Below, piece by piece: positions 9,933-19,694 of a stretch of DNA of 29,649 bases (positions are counted from its first letter, which is position 1; each line of letters starts with the position of its first letter). The position numbers were made by a program, and so were the translations under genes. Source of the stretch: an uncultured Mycoplasmataceae bacterium (GTDB taxonomy: Bacteria; Bacillota_I; Bacilli_A; Mycoplasmatales; Mycoplasmoidaceae); the NCBI GenBank assembly GCA_947176435.1, contig CAMWQH010000001.1:1-29649 (forward strand), in the 5' to 3' direction. The notes below the pieces were generated by a model. The model was not told the origin of the DNA and did not search any database. It saw only the letters and a list, made by a program, of their open reading frames with translations.

Positions 9933-10463
9933 TTATTTTAGTATTTTCTTTAGTTCACTGAACTTAATATTCATCATATTAAGTCTTTTAAAAAGTTGCT
10001 TATTATTACATTCAGAAATTCCAAAGTGATCTGTAACAGTTTTTCTTTTTTGTTTTGTATTTAAGTCAAGCTTTTGGTATTGTTCTATTGTTAGACAGTT
10101 GTTTGCCTTCTTAAAAGATTTTAGATTTTTAAATGCATCTAAGATTTGTTTGTCTGATGCTTCAGCTACTCCGGGTTTTTTAGTTCCCTTTGGTCTTTTG
10201 ATAAAAGCTTGCTCAAATGAATCTAATTCATTTTGAAGTTTTTTTCTTATTTTTTCTCCTGGACCATCTGGATCCAAAAATAAAACAATATCATTTGTTT
10301 TTGATGTTTTTTTTATCAAGTTTATTGTTTTTAAAGACAATCTAGAACCATTCGTTTCGATTGTCCTTACATTAAATAATTGTTTTAATCGTTGTGTGTC
10401 GGTTTTGCCTTCAACAACAACTATTTGTTTAATTGTTGGCTTACTTTTTACCTTTTGGTTCAT
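9933..10463 (-). CDS. rnmV: Ribonuclease M5 (Toprim, 5S rRNA maturase)
   Basis: IVVVEGKTD, FLDPDGPGEKIRK and GVAEAS motifs. ATG 10463 chosen; it overlaps the prs 3' end by 23 nt. Confidence 0.9.
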   Translation of the reverse strand: MNQKVKSKPTIKQIVVVEGKTDTQRLKQLFNVRTIETNGSRLSLKTINLIKKTSKTNDIVLFLDPDGPGEKIRKKLQNELDSFEQAFIKRPKGTKKPGVAEASDKQILDAFKNLKSFKKANNCLTIEQYQKLDLNTKQKRKTVTDHFGISECNNKQLFKRLNMMNIKFSELKKILK

Positions 10464-11427
10464 ATAAATCATAGATTTTTGATATTGAACCATCTTTAGA
10501 ATAATAAACTTCAATGATTTTTGCTAGATATTCACCTAAATCTACAACATGTAAGTTAGGAATATTAGATTCATAAACACTTTCAATTGAATTTGATAAA
10601 TAAATATCTGAAATTACTTCAGTGTTAACAGCATCAATTAATCTTTCAATAGCAGGTCCAGATAAAATACCATGTGTTGAAACAATGTTAATTGTTTTTG
10701 CACCTTTAGATTTTAAAACTTTACATGCTGCAACTATTGTTCCTGCAGTATCAATCATATCGTCAGCAATTAAACAATCTCTACCTTGAACATCACCAAG
10801 AATGTTTAAAATTTCAGCTTGATTTGGTTTAGGTCTTCTCTTATCAAGAATTGCTAACGGAGCACCTAAAGCAGTAGCAATTTTTCTAGCACGTTTAACA
10901 CCACCGTAATCCGGAGAAACAACAGTTAAATTTTCAACACTAATGTTTTTAATTGCTTGAGAAATTAATAACATTGTTGCTCTCAATGTATCTACAGGAA
11001 TATCAAAGAATCCTTGAGTTTGTTCACTATGAACATCAATGATAGCAACTCTTGTTGCTCCTGTTTTTTCTAACAATTTAGCTAATAATTTTGATGTAAT
11101 TGGTTCACGGCCTAGTGTTTTACGATCTTGTCTTGCATAAGCATAATAAGGAATGATTACGTTAATTTCTTTTGCAGATGCTCTTTTCAATGAATCAATA
11201 GCGATTAATAATTCCATAATTTTTTCATTAACTGGTTTTGATAATGATTGAACAACTGTAATCGCTCTATTTCTTACTGGCTGTTCAGGTCTAACCATAA
11301 TTTCTCCATCAGCAAATCTACTAGAGAAAGTTTTAATAGGTTTAACATTTAAATTTTTACAAATACTTTCAGTTATTTTCTTGGCACCAGATAGGCCCAT
11401 TACATAAATTTCTTTACTGTTTGACAT
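10441..11427 (-). CDS. prs: Ribose-phosphate pyrophosphokinase
   Basis: FADGEI, PYYAYARQDRK, VVSPDYGGVKRA, DKRR and DDMIDTAGT motifs; start taken at MSNSKE, with a TATAAT ~22 nt upstream. Confidence 0.97.
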   Translation of the reverse strand: MSNSKEIYVMGLSGAKKITESICKNLNVKPIKTFSSRFADGEIMVRPEQPVRNRAITVVQSLSKPVNEKIMELLIAIDSLKRASAKEINVIIPYYAYARQDRKTLGREPITSKLLAKLLEKTGATRVAIIDVHSEQTQGFFDIPVDTLRATMLLISQAIKNISVENLTVVSPDYGGVKRARKIATALGAPLAILDKRRPKPNQAEILNILGDVQGRDCLIADDMIDTAGTIVAACKVLKSKGAKTINIVSTHGILSGPAIERLIDAVNTEVISDIYLSNSIESVYESNIPNLHVVDLGEYLAKIIEVYYSKDGSISKIYDLYEPKGKK

Positions 11428-11469
11428 AATACAAATATTAATACTTAAATTATACATTTTCAATGTATA

Positions 11470-12036
11470 AAACTTATGATATTTTAAATAATATTAGATT
11501 AAAAAGTTATTCTAACTTCCCAAGAATATAAAAAATCAATTGTCGGACTTAAAACTAGTTTGAAAAAAATAATTTTATGGTATACACATTATGATTGGTT
11601 ATTTTCTTGCAAAAAAGCAGTATTGAAAATGTCAACAAATTTATAAAAAAATTTCAAAATAAACAAATTTTACAAAAACATCTCGGCATAAAATAAAAGA
11701 GGGTATAGATTAAATAAACAATTTATAAAACCCGAGTTGCACTATAAATCATCAATTGAACTATATAATAGTCTCTATCAAACTAAGTTACTGGGAAGTT
11801 TGGTTTTGACTTAGTATTATTAAAAAGTCAATAGTTGTGCTAAAAAAATAGTTTGAAGAAGAATAACTTTAAAGAGATTTAGACTATGAAAATTTATTAG
11901 TCAATAATAAATAAAGTCATAGATTAAATTAATAATCTATGAAACTTGAATTAATATATAAATTATTTGTGAACTATAACAATGTCTCTATCAAGCTAAG
12001 TTTCTAATAACTTTAGTTTAGACTTAGCATAATAAT
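11470..12036. repeat. Three degenerate tandem ~212-nt non-coding units with conserved hairpins (candidate structured RNA)
   Basis: TAGATTAAA at 11495, 11706 and 11920; GTCTCTATCAA at 11771 and 11984; CTAAGTT...GACTTAG hairpin at 11782-11815 and 11995-12028; no meaningful ORF found. Confidence 0.7.
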
Positions 12037-14904
12037 CTAATTTGGTAAAATACAGTCTAATAATGCTTGAGCTGCAAATTGGAATACAGACATTACTGTA
12101 ATAATAACAGGGTATTTATATTCAGCTATTTTAGTTGAATTGTTTAATGCCTTATGAGCATTATATTCTAACCTTTTTTCTCCCAAGTGAAGTTCAGCAT
12201 ACCTTCTTCCAGCATTGTTTGTAAGATGTTGTATTTGAAAATCATATGTTTCGACAAGATCTGTATATCCTTTAGCTAGACTTTTTGCTTTACATACTTG
12301 AATACCATTGATTCATGCAGCAAATTGGTCTTGCTCTGCAATACCAGCTTCATATGCTTTATCAAAAGAAAGTCTGTTAAATGCTGGCACACAATAAGCT
12401 ACTGATGTTAAAATTAACAACGGGAAAGATATTCCCAAAAGAGCATATGATGCGATTTGCAATTTCGATAAAGAATCTTCATCATCTTTTGAAGTATCAA
12501 CATCTTGATATAGAGTGTTGTGAATTTCATCGAATTTATCTTTTCCTACAACATTTTCAATTTCATCTTTATTTTCACTAATGTAAGTTTCAAGAAGAGA
12601 TTTTGTTAAAATTCTAGTTTCTAAAGAAAGTTTATGAACATTTTGCCCAGCTTTAACTTTTGCATCATATTGTGCATGAGAATCATTTAATGTTTTAATA
12701 TCTTTTTCTAAGTTTTTGAAATTATTAACAATTGTAGATTTAAATGAAGAATATTTATTTTCAATTGTTGAATTTTTCTTCATATTCTTGTAATTTTTAT
12801 ATGATTTATGAAAATCAATACCAGACAAAATAACTTCAGAACCTAATGTAGCAAGGTAAACACTACCAATTACTATATTAGCAATAGCATCAGAATCGGC
12901 TCCAAGTGATGCAACAACTCTACAACTATATACAACCATCATTGCACCTACACTAGCACCTAATGCTGAAGAAGCTGAAAGAAATCCAATACATTTATCA
13001 AGATTTTTTCCAATTTCATCAATTTTAGAAGTATCTCCACTAGATGAATTTTGATTTAATGAAGCCATAATTTGGATGTATTCAGAATAGTTAGAAATAA
13101 ATAGAGCTTCTGTTCTTCCTAAGTCAATTGTTTGTTGAATAACTTGGTCAATATCAAATTGCACTTCTAATGAAGCTAATTCAATATTATTTCAATGTCA
13201 AGGAATATCTTTAACCACATAGAAATCATTGTTTGTTGTTTCATTAGATTCAATGCCACTATCGATTAATGCTCAATGAACTGATAATGTGTTAGTATTT
13301 GTATTTACATCACTAGCAATTAATGCAAGCTTTTGATTTGTGTGAAAGCTAGTTGAAAGTAATTCTTCAATATTTGAAGGAATAGGGATACCTTCATAAG
13401 CAGCAGCATCTAAAATTACTGGATTTTTAGATAAATCATAGTCTTGATCTTTAGAACCTTTGTAATTGTTAAGAATTTCGTTAATTTTTGTTCTAGATAA
13501 AGCTGAGTCTTTAAAGAAAACGCCATTTTCATCAGGAACAACATCATTTGATAGCTCTGTAAAAGAAATTTTTTCATTTAGAGTGGCAGTAGAATCTGAT
13601 AATTTATCATTTAAATATTTGTTGTTAGTAATATTATTAACTAAATCAAAAGAATTTACTTTACATGAAAAAACATTCATTGATTCAACATTAGTTCCAT
13701 CTAAATTCTGTCATAAAATTTCAGTACTATCTGTTTTACTAATTCCAAAAACAAATTTTAGATTTGCAACATGAGAATCAACTGAATTTTCAACATCAAG
13801 AAGCTTAACATGTAATTGGTAGCCAGGGAAAATTTCATTTTTCTCATAAGGAACATAACCAACAAAACTATCAAGTGGAGCTTCATAGAAAGCTCTATTA
13901 ATAGTGTTTTTATCATAGTCTCCTGTTTCTTTAGCTTCTGGAATATCATGATCAATTGATATTTGGTCAAAATCACAACCTCTAGCTAAATTGTATTTAT
14001 AGTTAAATAGTGCAGTAACATCATCACTTGTTAAAATGCTACCAACTTCTAAACCTTCATTATTTAATGAATAATCTTTTAGCAAAGATAAACCTTCTTC
14101 ACGAATTGATAATAATTGTGATGAATTGTTTGTGAATCAAGTAAGAACTGTTTCTAATTCAGCATCTTTATCATTTTTTTGCTTTTCATCAACATTGATT
14201 TTATTATTTTTTAAATAATTTAATGTTAAATTTTCGTTAGTTTGAAATTCATTAAGAAGTAATGAATATGTAACATCATCATACAAGGACTCATTAGCTG
14301 CATCAAGAGTATCAAGAATATCACTTTTATATTGAGTTGCTTGTTCAATAGCAACATCTTTATCAACACCGGCATTAATTAAATCTATTTCATATTTGGC
14401 AGCCATTGTTGGTATGTCATATTGAAACCTATCATAGTCTATTACATCTACCCCAAATTCTGCAGCTTGAGAATTAACATATGAATAAACGTTGTTTAAT
14501 GAATCTTGAGTTAATTGGCCATCAGCTGGTAGATTGTTGCTAGCTAATTCTTCAGTAATTTTATTAGAAATGTTTTTCTCCATTAATCCAATAGTAGTAT
14601 CAACAGTAGTTTTATCTAAACCAACCGCATACAAAGTATATTGAGTTTTATCTTCAATAGCAGCGATTCTGTGATTCAACTGGTCTTGGGTTACGTCTGT
14701 GTCATCACTCATAGATCTAACAGCATCTAAAGATGAATACTTAGAATTGATTATTTGACCATCAGATAAAGAATATTTTTTACTAACTTCTTTAATATTA
14801 TTTTTTTGATAATTTGAAACCTGGCACGAGCACAATGATAAAGTAGGAAGCAATGCCATTCCTGTTAATAATATTTTTTTATTTTTCATCATAATTTTCA
14901 TCAT
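12037..14904 (-). CDS. Large uncharacterised lipoprotein (~955 aa) with C-terminal hydrophobic helices
   Basis: ORFs 14137..14904, 13711..14085, 13273..13680 and 12313..13164 are in one frame, joined by TGA, ending at TAG 12037-12039. Signal peptide with lipobox LCSC; start could be 14889-14904. Confidence 0.85.
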
Positions 14905-17682: not shown

Positions 17683-19003
17683 TGTAGGTAACACTAACTT
17701 TTGGCACCACCTAAACAAGGTTATTATAGTTATGAAAATATAATATTGATTTAATAGGTGTCATAAACTTGTTTTCTTTACTAATTTCATCTAATTCTGT
17801 GTAATGTAATAATCTATCATTGTTGTAATAATTTATTCATTTGTCAAATGTTAATTTGATTTCGTCTAAACTTATGCATTTTCTTAATAACTTTCCAAGT
17901 TCTTGATCAATTGTTCGATGGTATCTTTCAATGCAGCCATTGCATTCAGGTTGTTGATAAGGAATGAAAATATGAATTATTCTTCTATCATTACATCATT
18001 TATTGAATTGATTTGATTTAACAAAATTTGTATTCTTAAATTGCATAGCATTATCTGTTTGAATTCTTTTAATTTTGATATTATTTTTTGAGAAGAAATC
18101 ATACATTTCGTCTAAACATTTCATTAATTCGGTGTTAGTTTGATTATCCAATACTTTTAAATGAACTAATCTTGAGCTAGTGTCAATTGCATCAAATATT
18201 GCAACTTTCTTGTTTAAACCTGTTTCTTTCAAACCAAGAATTTTAAGATCTAATTGGATATTTCCTAATTCTTTAGGTTTTCTTCTAAACAAATGTGGTC
18301 TTGATAACTTTTTGTTTTTATTCATAAGTTTTCTACTATCTTCATTGAGAATTTTTATTAGAGTTGTGTGAGAAATATTCTCAAATTTTTTATCCAATTT
18401 TCTTATTGCTAATCATAGATTAGTTTTGTTTAATAAGCAATTAACATTGAGGAAATTTTCGTAGAAAATCACTGATTTGTCGCCGTTCTTTATCATTGTA
18501 TTTGTAAGTTATTGTTTTTGGTATAGGAGTTTTTGGCAAATGTAAATTAAACTCAATTGTTCTTTTGTCACATAGCTTACACAGTTTATATTTTTTCCTA
18601 AAGAAATGTCTTTTTGAAATTGGAGTTGTTTTTCAATTTTTCTGATAGTATTTTTTAATACTTATATTTTTATTGATGCAAAAGTTTAAGACATATAAAA
18701 CATTCTTAAAGTTTTGTTTAAATCTGATATATCTGTTGTATAAAGCCTATCAGCTCTATTACTTATTCCATAAGTGTTTAAATTACTTGTAATTTGAATA
18801 AACTCTTTTTCAAAACGAAAATAAACAGCATTTATTGCTTCAAATTGGATATGGATTGGTCTTTTATTGGTTGGTGTATATAATCATTTGGTACGCCTCT
18901 GGTTTAGGTGTACTACGGAGTCAAAGTTCTAGCTTATGACTCTTTTTTTTAGTAGCGGGAATTATTATATTTTCCCCGGTGCCAAAAGATTATGTATCTA
19001 ACA
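17683..19003 (-). mobile_element. IS481-like insertion sequence (~1321 bp), decayed
   Basis: 26-bp imperfect terminal inverted repeats TGTAGGTAACACTAACTTTTGGCACC (17683-17708) and revcomp TGTTAGATACATAATCTTTTGGCACC (18978-19003); TGT...ACA ends; internal DDE transposase; no clean target-site duplication. Confidence 0.8.
17711..18888 (-). pseudogene. Frameshifted DDE (rve) transposase
   Basis: C-terminal frame carries GNIQLDLK (D), IDTSSR, IQTDNA (D) and QPECNGCIERYHRT (E), ending at TAG 17711-17713. The upstream HTH-like part is in another frame (shift near 18450), and no single frame reaches a start codon, so the 5' boundary is uncertain. Confidence 0.75.
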
Positions 19004-19041
19004 CAATGGTGTTTTTTATTAAAAAAATCTATTGTTTAAAC

Positions 19042-19047
19042 TATAAT
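19042..19047 (+). promoter_or_regulatory. -10 box of ffs
   Basis: TATAAT ending 6 nt before the predicted SRP RNA 5' end. Confidence 0.6.
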
Positions 19048-19052
19048 ATTTA

Positions 19053-19132
19053 TGTCCTTGCAACGTTAGTTGCGAACCTAGTCAGGCCGGAAACGGAGCA
19101 GCTATAAGCTTATGCTAACGTGTGTAAGGACA
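19053..19132 (+). ncRNA. ffs: Signal recognition particle RNA (small 4.5S type)
   Basis: Conserved domain IV GTCAGGCCGGAAACGGAGCAGC; long stem TGTCCTTGCA-ACGTTAGT / GCTAACGT-GTGTAAGGACA. Confidence 0.92.
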
Positions 19133-19250
19133 CTATTTTATATTTTCTAGATTTTTGCATTTATATACAATCTGTTTATTATTAAATAATATTCATATTA
19201 AGTACCCTCTTTCTTAAAATACAAAACGCAAAAATTAAAAAATATAAAAG

Positions 19251-19343: not shown

Positions 19344-19694
19344 TACAAGTTGTAAGCCATGTTCTGTGTCATTATTTACATAATGATATTGATCATTTAT
19401 CTACACATATGTGCCAAATCATTGATTCAGTTATCTTTGACTTGTTCCCCTACCAAATTTGGGTTTCTTGCTTATGGAGTTTACCGCGTTTCACTTTTAT
19501 AGTTTCCTATAAACTCGTCTCTGTGGCACTTTAGGCTATTACTATCTTATACCGATACTTAGATAATTTTAGCGTCATCACTCTAACTATAGGGTGTTGG
19601 AATTTATCATTCCACATAAACATTTACAAGCATCGCAGCTTGTGCAAGCATGGACTTTCCTCTACATTATTAATGCAGCGATCAATTACTTGTA
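19344..19694 (-). ncRNA. rnpB: RNase P RNA (B type)
   Basis: Minus strand shows GAGGAAAGTCCATGCT, AAAGTGCCACAGAGACGAG, GTGAAACGCGGTAAACTCC, GAAACCCAAAT and ACAGAACATGGCTTAC; terminal P1 TACAAGT/ACTTGTA. Confidence 0.95.

Follow-up and report, generated by a model that had tools for sequence, protein, structure and literature searches.

Insertion sequences of the IS30 type are common in mycoplasmas, IS1630 and ISMhom-1 being two examples (PMC3317919, PMC7648426). IS1630 is 1.18-1.38 kb long, has 27-bp inverted repeats and is associated with long duplicated junctions (PMC3317919). ISMhom-1 is 1.26 kb in length, with a 108-bp leader and 27-bp inverted repeats, and its insertions fall within untranslated regions as well as at gene 3' ends (PMC7648426).

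The window described here, the whole stretch of 29,649 nucleotides that was analysed, is contig C1 of a fragmented assembly of Mollicute type, 699 kb in 114 contigs (genome G000; 28% G+C and 77.5% complete), in which TGA is read as tryptophan. Among its genes are prs (10441-11427, minus strand, with its ATG at 11427), whose product has the Pfam domains Pribosyltran_N and Pribosyltran, and a gene for a 955-aa lipoprotein without a Pfam family (12037-14904, minus strand). We conclude with high confidence that two dead, internally deleted copies of an IS30-family element lie head to tail between these genes, and that the region is transposon debris and not a new RNA. Such an element has a gene for a DDE transposase, flanked on both sides by terminal inverted repeats that measure about 29 bp here. 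The two copies are denoted A, on the prs side, and B, towards whose right end the lipoprotein gene is convergent.

The earlier note had described this interval as a tandem array of three units of about 212 nt. Units 2 and 3 are genuine, and form an ungapped direct repeat of approximately 129 nt (11692-11820 and 11906-12033) at a spacing of 213-214 nt. Their identity is 72-78%, with 72% between 11692-11752 and 11906-11966 and 78% between 11757-11820 and 11970-12033, and their local alignment score of 85 is reached by none of 300 dinucleotide shuffles (22 +/- 3). Unit 1 (11470-11691), however, is out of register. Its similarity to unit 3 is at chance level (105 of 300 shuffles scored as high), and it matches unit 2 only at an offset of 292, with 11529-11577 corresponding to 11821-11871; this match is the left end of the element, repeated. 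The motifs quoted for the three units are all present at the positions given, but the TAGATTAAA at 11495 is not homologous to the other pair. It is made up of 5 nt of flanking sequence and the first 4 nt of the left inverted repeat of copy A, whereas the other two TAGATTAAA copies fall inside the hairpin designated A. Tandem Repeats Finder reported nothing at the units, and an nhmmer search of the window's own genome with a profile built from units 2 and 3 returned just the two copies plus weak fragments. Within its own genome the repeat therefore seemed local, and its dispersal became apparent in related genomes.

A match to a dispersed repeat had been named beforehand as a finding that would speak against an RNA array, and the units do match many loci in related genomes. 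A region of 573 nt containing them has matches at 80-83% identity, including many copies in G006, a genome of the same genus, where several of them are situated at contig ends. With a query element that is nearly complete at about 1.19 kb and has its transposase frame interrupted (G006:C5), we find 10 matches in G006, 13 in G055, five each in G052 and G053, two in G014 and five in the window's own genome. ORFs beside the G006 copies read as pieces of a DDE transposase (FGHWEIDIVEGKRGT, TDNGSEFW and HPYCSCEKGSIENINKLIRRKFPK), and the NCBIfam model NF033563 (IS30 family, cut-off 80) scores G006 fragments at 130.6 and 79.2 bits and an intact 367-aa relative in G044 at 189.2 bits. The repeat is the right end of this IS30-family insertion sequence, containing the last transposase codons and the right terminal inverted repeat. 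The element termini were set where the flanks diverge in an alignment of independent copies together with their flanking sequences; the outermost similar stretch is GACTTAGTA at the right end and TAAAAAGTCAATAG at the left end, and similarity breaks off beyond them. The left and right terminal inverted repeats in G006 match at 24 of 29 positions, and have the core AAACTTCCCAGTAA in common.

Further relics are present elsewhere in the window's own genome (C30:3185-3642, C2:1311-1423, C15:2178-2259 and C16:4547-4583), and these comprise a transposase gene that is no longer intact, fragments of right ends and one left end on its own. An intact IS30-family transposase did not turn up in the assembly, but with 77.5% completeness the genome may encode one elsewhere. 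In the relatives we note short derivatives of about 330-390 nt with shared junctions, both in G006 (L044 3547-3876, L043 2395-2691 and L045 1612-1912) and in G055 (L064 383-753 and L067 2629-2951). A deletion junction joining element positions 170 and 1045 is common to G006 C7, C98 and C75, and G055 C20 and C46 have a similar junction in common. These derivatives in two species constitute a candidate MITE family in this Mollicute genus. The element and its short derivatives are apparently unnamed, and novelty appears to be limited to these.

Copy A (11500-11816, plus strand; 317 nt) is internally deleted, such that positions 7-87 of the G006 element are joined to positions 975-1197. Its left part (11500-11594, plus strand) carries a degenerate left inverted repeat, in which the core has mismatches at 3 of 14 positions, followed by the 5' leader and an ATG at 11591-11593. 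The right part (11600-11816, plus strand) is a broken relic of the last ~70 transposase codons with a TAG stop codon at 11812-11814, and ends in the right inverted repeat (11788-11816), the core AAACTTCCCAGTAA of which is exact at 11788-11801 on the minus strand. Alignment of copy A with the G006:C5 element by blastn gives 82% identity over 224 nt (E 1e-53) and 81% over 81 nt. The C-terminal 102 aa of the G006:C9 transposase match window 11521-11811 by tblastn (42% over 100 aa, E 1e-9), and a six-frame reading of the window yields SIENVNKFIKKF and then SSIELYNSLYQTKLLGSLVLT followed by a stop, the whole being broken by stop codons and frameshifts.

The right inverted-repeat tip of copy A is separated from the left tip of copy B by the spacer TTAT (11817-11820). 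Copy B (11821-12029, plus strand; 209 nt) is a more decayed deletion derivative. Its left part (11821-11894, plus strand) corresponds to positions ~22-92 of the G006 element and keeps the left inverted-repeat tip, but about 31 nt that include the AAACTTCCCAG core are missing between two 14-nt direct repeats; its right part (~11906-12029, plus strand) corresponds to positions 1073-1195. The blastn matches to the G006 element are at 77% identity over 82 nt and 77% over 124 nt. The apparent period of ~213 nt arises because copy B is 209 nt long and the spacer adds 4 nt. The junctions, 87-to-975 in copy A and ~92-to-1073 in copy B, are unique and absent from the other copies; both copies lack an open transposase frame and fall short of the full element length of ~1.0-1.4 kb.

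The two hairpins described in the earlier note are present in both copies, and each coincides with a part of the element. Hairpin A of copy A (11704-11727, plus strand) is a palindrome in the transposase codons V-I-D-W-I-N-N-L-W, in which a W codon has mutated from TGA to TAA, and in copy B (11918-11941, plus strand) it forms 9 perfect pairs, CATAGATTA/TAATCTATG. Hairpin B is located at 11782-11815 in copy A and 11995-12028 in copy B, both on the plus strand. Its 5' arm in copy A is formed by the codons ...T-K-L-L, and the 3' arm runs from the final codon through the stop into the outermost bases of the right inverted repeat.

Comparison with related genomes reveals both empty and occupied sites. 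In G054, G052 and G053 homology to the prs flank (82-83%) ends at window 11495-11503 and the element is absent; in G014, also without the element, prs is joined to the SRP RNA gene within ~41 nt. G006, in which the prs flank is similarly conserved, has a relic at the identical junction (ATTAGAT then TAAAA), with a different internal deletion. Genes for SRP RNA and RNase P RNA directly follow prs in G014, G054 and G053. In the window these are found well to the right, as a small SRP RNA (19047-19141, plus strand; RF00169, 56.6 bits) and a class B RNase P RNA (19348-19693, minus strand; RF00011, 251.9 bits), and their side-by-side arrangement is conserved in relatives. Homology stops at the prs flank and resumes at window 19004 in G014 (96%) and at 19030 in G054, and thus, compared with G014, G054 and G053, the window carries an insertion of about 7.5 kb (11500 to ~19003-19029). 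No target-site duplication was seen beside copy A, copy B or the A+B pair in the AT-rich flanks, the right flank being rearranged relative to the empty sites.

Within the 7.5-kb insert are the 955-aa lipoprotein gene and an 896-aa ORF, together with the two IS30 relics and a transposase relic resembling IS481. The stretch has the look of a hot spot for insertion, or of an island with insertion sequences at its borders, that carries surface-protein genes. The IS481-like relic is a 261-aa ORF with an rve domain (17711-18496, minus strand) that scores 112.8 bits with NF033577, below the cut-off of 224, and is probably truncated at its N-terminus. We considered its product as the parent transposase of the units and rejected it, as it is IS481-like and has no similarity to them. 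Paralogues of the 955-aa lipoprotein (23-38% identity) directly adjoin other copies of the element in G006, G014 and G055 and on contig C30 of the window's own genome (L047 465-1523, L048 5306-9001, L049 3701-6664 and L064 1295-2794). In G006:C139 and in G014 the left end of the element is ~25-80 nt upstream of the lipoprotein start.

The empty sites also bear on a role in prs expression, the units having been proposed as tandem prs attenuators. The element is missing from the site upstream of prs in G014, G054, G052 and G053, and the native upstream region (11431-11499, minus strand), which is 82-83% conserved in G054, G052, G053 and G006 up to window 11495-11503, is outside the element. A promoter scan of this region identifies two candidate prs promoters, one with an extended -10 motif, TGTATAAT, on the minus strand at 11456-11449, and the other, TTGAAA-17-TAATAT, at 11463-11435. 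Because these conserved 70 nt with their candidate promoters separate prs from the element, the units are not a prs leader. The units are upstream of the prs promoter, and a transcript initiating there would therefore exclude them; the units could be reached only by read-through from the lipoprotein gene.

A separate question is whether copy B has acquired a function at its other side. At four loci a large convergent ORF has its stop codon only 3-10 nt away from the right end of the element, these being G006 C9, C5 and C98 and the window itself at 12029-12039 (the intervals in the relatives are at L041 4198-4204, L042 5201-5212 and L043 2691-2698). This distribution suggests that the element prefers targets just after gene ends, possibly terminator hairpins, as is reported for IS1630. 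IS1630 is said, in the title of a 1999 report by Calcutt et al., to target inverted repeats and to duplicate them, and for this reason the element here may have replaced the lipoprotein gene's own terminator. Copy B would then be an exapted relic in which the hairpins are a maintained intrinsic terminator of the convergent 955-aa lipoprotein gene, a reading that we consider doubtful. The right end of copy B is 7 nt from the stop codon (12037-12039), and on the minus strand hairpin B begins 8 nt after that stop and is followed by hairpin A and then a U-rich tract; this tract had been pointed out previously, and it is indeed seen for copy B. The hairpins of copy B are more perfect than those of any other copy, with fold z-scores of -3.0 (plus strand) and -1.6 (minus strand), and the short distance to a convergent stop codon recurs at the three G006 loci. 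However, a terminator scan finds no site on either strand, and the stems contain only 1-2 G-C pairs. Hairpin B has a loop of 16 nt and lacks a U-run after it on the minus strand, and the better fold is that of the plus strand rather than the strand of the lipoprotein mRNA. An extended form of this scenario, in which a short IS30-derived MITE family is spreading in the genus and copy B was co-opted as the lipoprotein terminator following insertion into the original terminator, is rather improbable.

It is very improbable that the units are still-mobile MITEs, short units moved in trans by a full-length transposase of the IS30 family. The earlier suggestion of a MITE-like structured repeat was right to the extent that the short copies A and B arose by deletion from a transposable element whose ends are inverted repeats, but their junctions are private. 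Shared junctions do occur in the relatives (G006 C7, C98 and C75; G055 C20 and C46), and their presence at several loci fits the copying of a ~330-390-nt derivative; the core of the right inverted repeat of copy A is also exact. Against mobility, the A and B junctions are each unique, the left inverted-repeat core is absent from copy B and the left repeat of copy A is degenerate. In addition, the window's own genome has yielded neither an intact transposase nor a target duplication, and the divergence of A and B from the other copies is 17-30%.

Selection for RNA structure was evaluated with an alignment (A1) to which five species contribute 10 right ends, and in which the three stems proposed in the earlier note, 21 pairs in all, were compared with 500 shuffles. 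Where units 2 and 3 differ in their stems, the changes on the two sides complement each other, just as claimed for these two copies. Across the 10 copies, 88.0% of cells are paired against 86.8% in the shuffles (47 of 500 as high), the covariation score is 0.186 against 0.162 +/- 0.015 (28 of 500 as high), and five pairs are changed on both sides where 3.1 are expected (45 of 500 as high). In the family as a whole, the outer stem TCGG/CCGA, which had been thought to be kept, reaches only 67.5% paired cells. In hairpin B pairing holds in 73% of cells for the outer three pairs, and five of the 10 copies lack it at position 130/164. Hairpin A (A1 columns 47-70, corresponding to window 11704-11727) is paired in 98.8% of cells in the 10 copies, and six of its eight pairs vary, on one side only and mostly to G-U on the transposase-sense strand. 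This pattern hints at a possible RNA or single-strand DNA constraint on the hairpin A palindrome while the element was active; the intact but more distant G044 relative has a counterpart of neither hairpin A nor hairpin B. The fold of unit 2 does not surpass that of shuffled sequence (z = -0.33 and -0.55), and unit 3 folds better than 200 of 200 shuffles on the plus strand. The appearance of covariation is a result of comparing just two diverged copies of insertion-sequence palindromes.

The units match no Rfam family, and none had been recognised in the earlier note; a cmscan search of 11000-12500 against Rfam with E-values up to 10 gave four matches only, all at chance level and all outside the units. 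A novel structured RNA array, or a series of prs attenuators, selected for secondary structure is extremely improbable, for although the stem differences between units 2 and 3 are complementary, unit 3 folds well and there is no competing Rfam family, it is opposed by all of the evidence for dispersed IS30-family relics, by the absence of the units upstream of prs in G014, G054, G052 and G053, by their position upstream of the prs promoter, by disruptive hairpin B changes in other copies and by covariation that does not rise above shuffles over the 10 copies.

Taking the two copies as dead, internally deleted IS30-family insertions, a probable history is that an element landed between prs and the SRP RNA gene, and that it was later joined by a second copy inserted directly at its right inverted repeat, or else gave rise to a tandem dimer. 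Most of the transposase gene would then have been lost from each copy by a separate internal deletion, and both would have gone on decaying by point mutation, the hairpins being inherited element sequence. The relics are presumably functionless now; at most, the hairpins of copy B may end transcription of the convergent lipoprotein gene.

In a tree of the right ends, copy A groups with copy B at the base with weak support (84/78), the branch of copy B is long (0.41), and G006 C7 groups with C75. Because the copies tend to group in this way by genome, the tree does not separate one ancestral insertion common to this genome and G006 from recurrent insertion at a hot spot or from gene conversion. 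The two copies probably decayed separately from longer copies, since their junctions differ and copy B keeps left bases that copy A lacks. We rejected copy B as a simple recent duplicate of copy A, as ~5 nt of the left part of copy B are absent from copy A and the identity is just 72%. Given the few shared derived states, it is possible that A and B derive from a common source lineage.

There are several broader implications. Palindromes occur in the ends of insertion sequences, and once two copies of these have diverged their differences can mimic compensatory changes, so repeats that come only as a pair are not a sound basis for calling a structured RNA. The interval between prs and the SRP RNA gene appears as an insertion hot spot, now occupied by ~7.5 kb of mobile DNA with two large surface-protein genes, and such insertion is typical of how mycoplasma-like genomes vary their lipoprotein repertoire. 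Defining the ends of an undescribed IS30-family element and of its short derivatives helps in annotating fragmented assemblies and in explaining contig breaks.

Compared at the family level, the element resembles IS1630 of M. fermentans and ISMhom-1 of M. hominis in having a single DDE transposase of the NF033563 type, a length of ~1.2 kb, inverted repeats of ~27-29 bp and a 5' leader of ~90-110 nt, and in its intergenic and gene-3'-end insertion in multiple copies, truncated ones included. It differs from both in that its sequence is specific to this genus, and the window copies differ in being only 317 and 209 nt long without an open transposase frame; the long target duplications of IS1630 were not found beside them. 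The window copies are like MITEs in being short, non-coding and hairpin-forming and in retaining the two ends of an autonomous element, and MITEs are easily taken for structured RNA genes; the ~330-390-nt derivatives in the relatives, with their shared junction, are also MITE-like. Unlike MITEs, the A and B junctions are private, the left repeat of copy B is incomplete, target duplications are lacking and the window's genome has no sign of recent copying. IS30 itself forms head-to-tail dimers, (IS30)2, and inserts next to its own inverted repeats. Although the spacer here is ~4 nt rather than the 2 bp of IS30, and both members are decayed, the A/B pair resembles these arrangements in that the right tip of copy A abuts the left tip of copy B with only a few bases between them.
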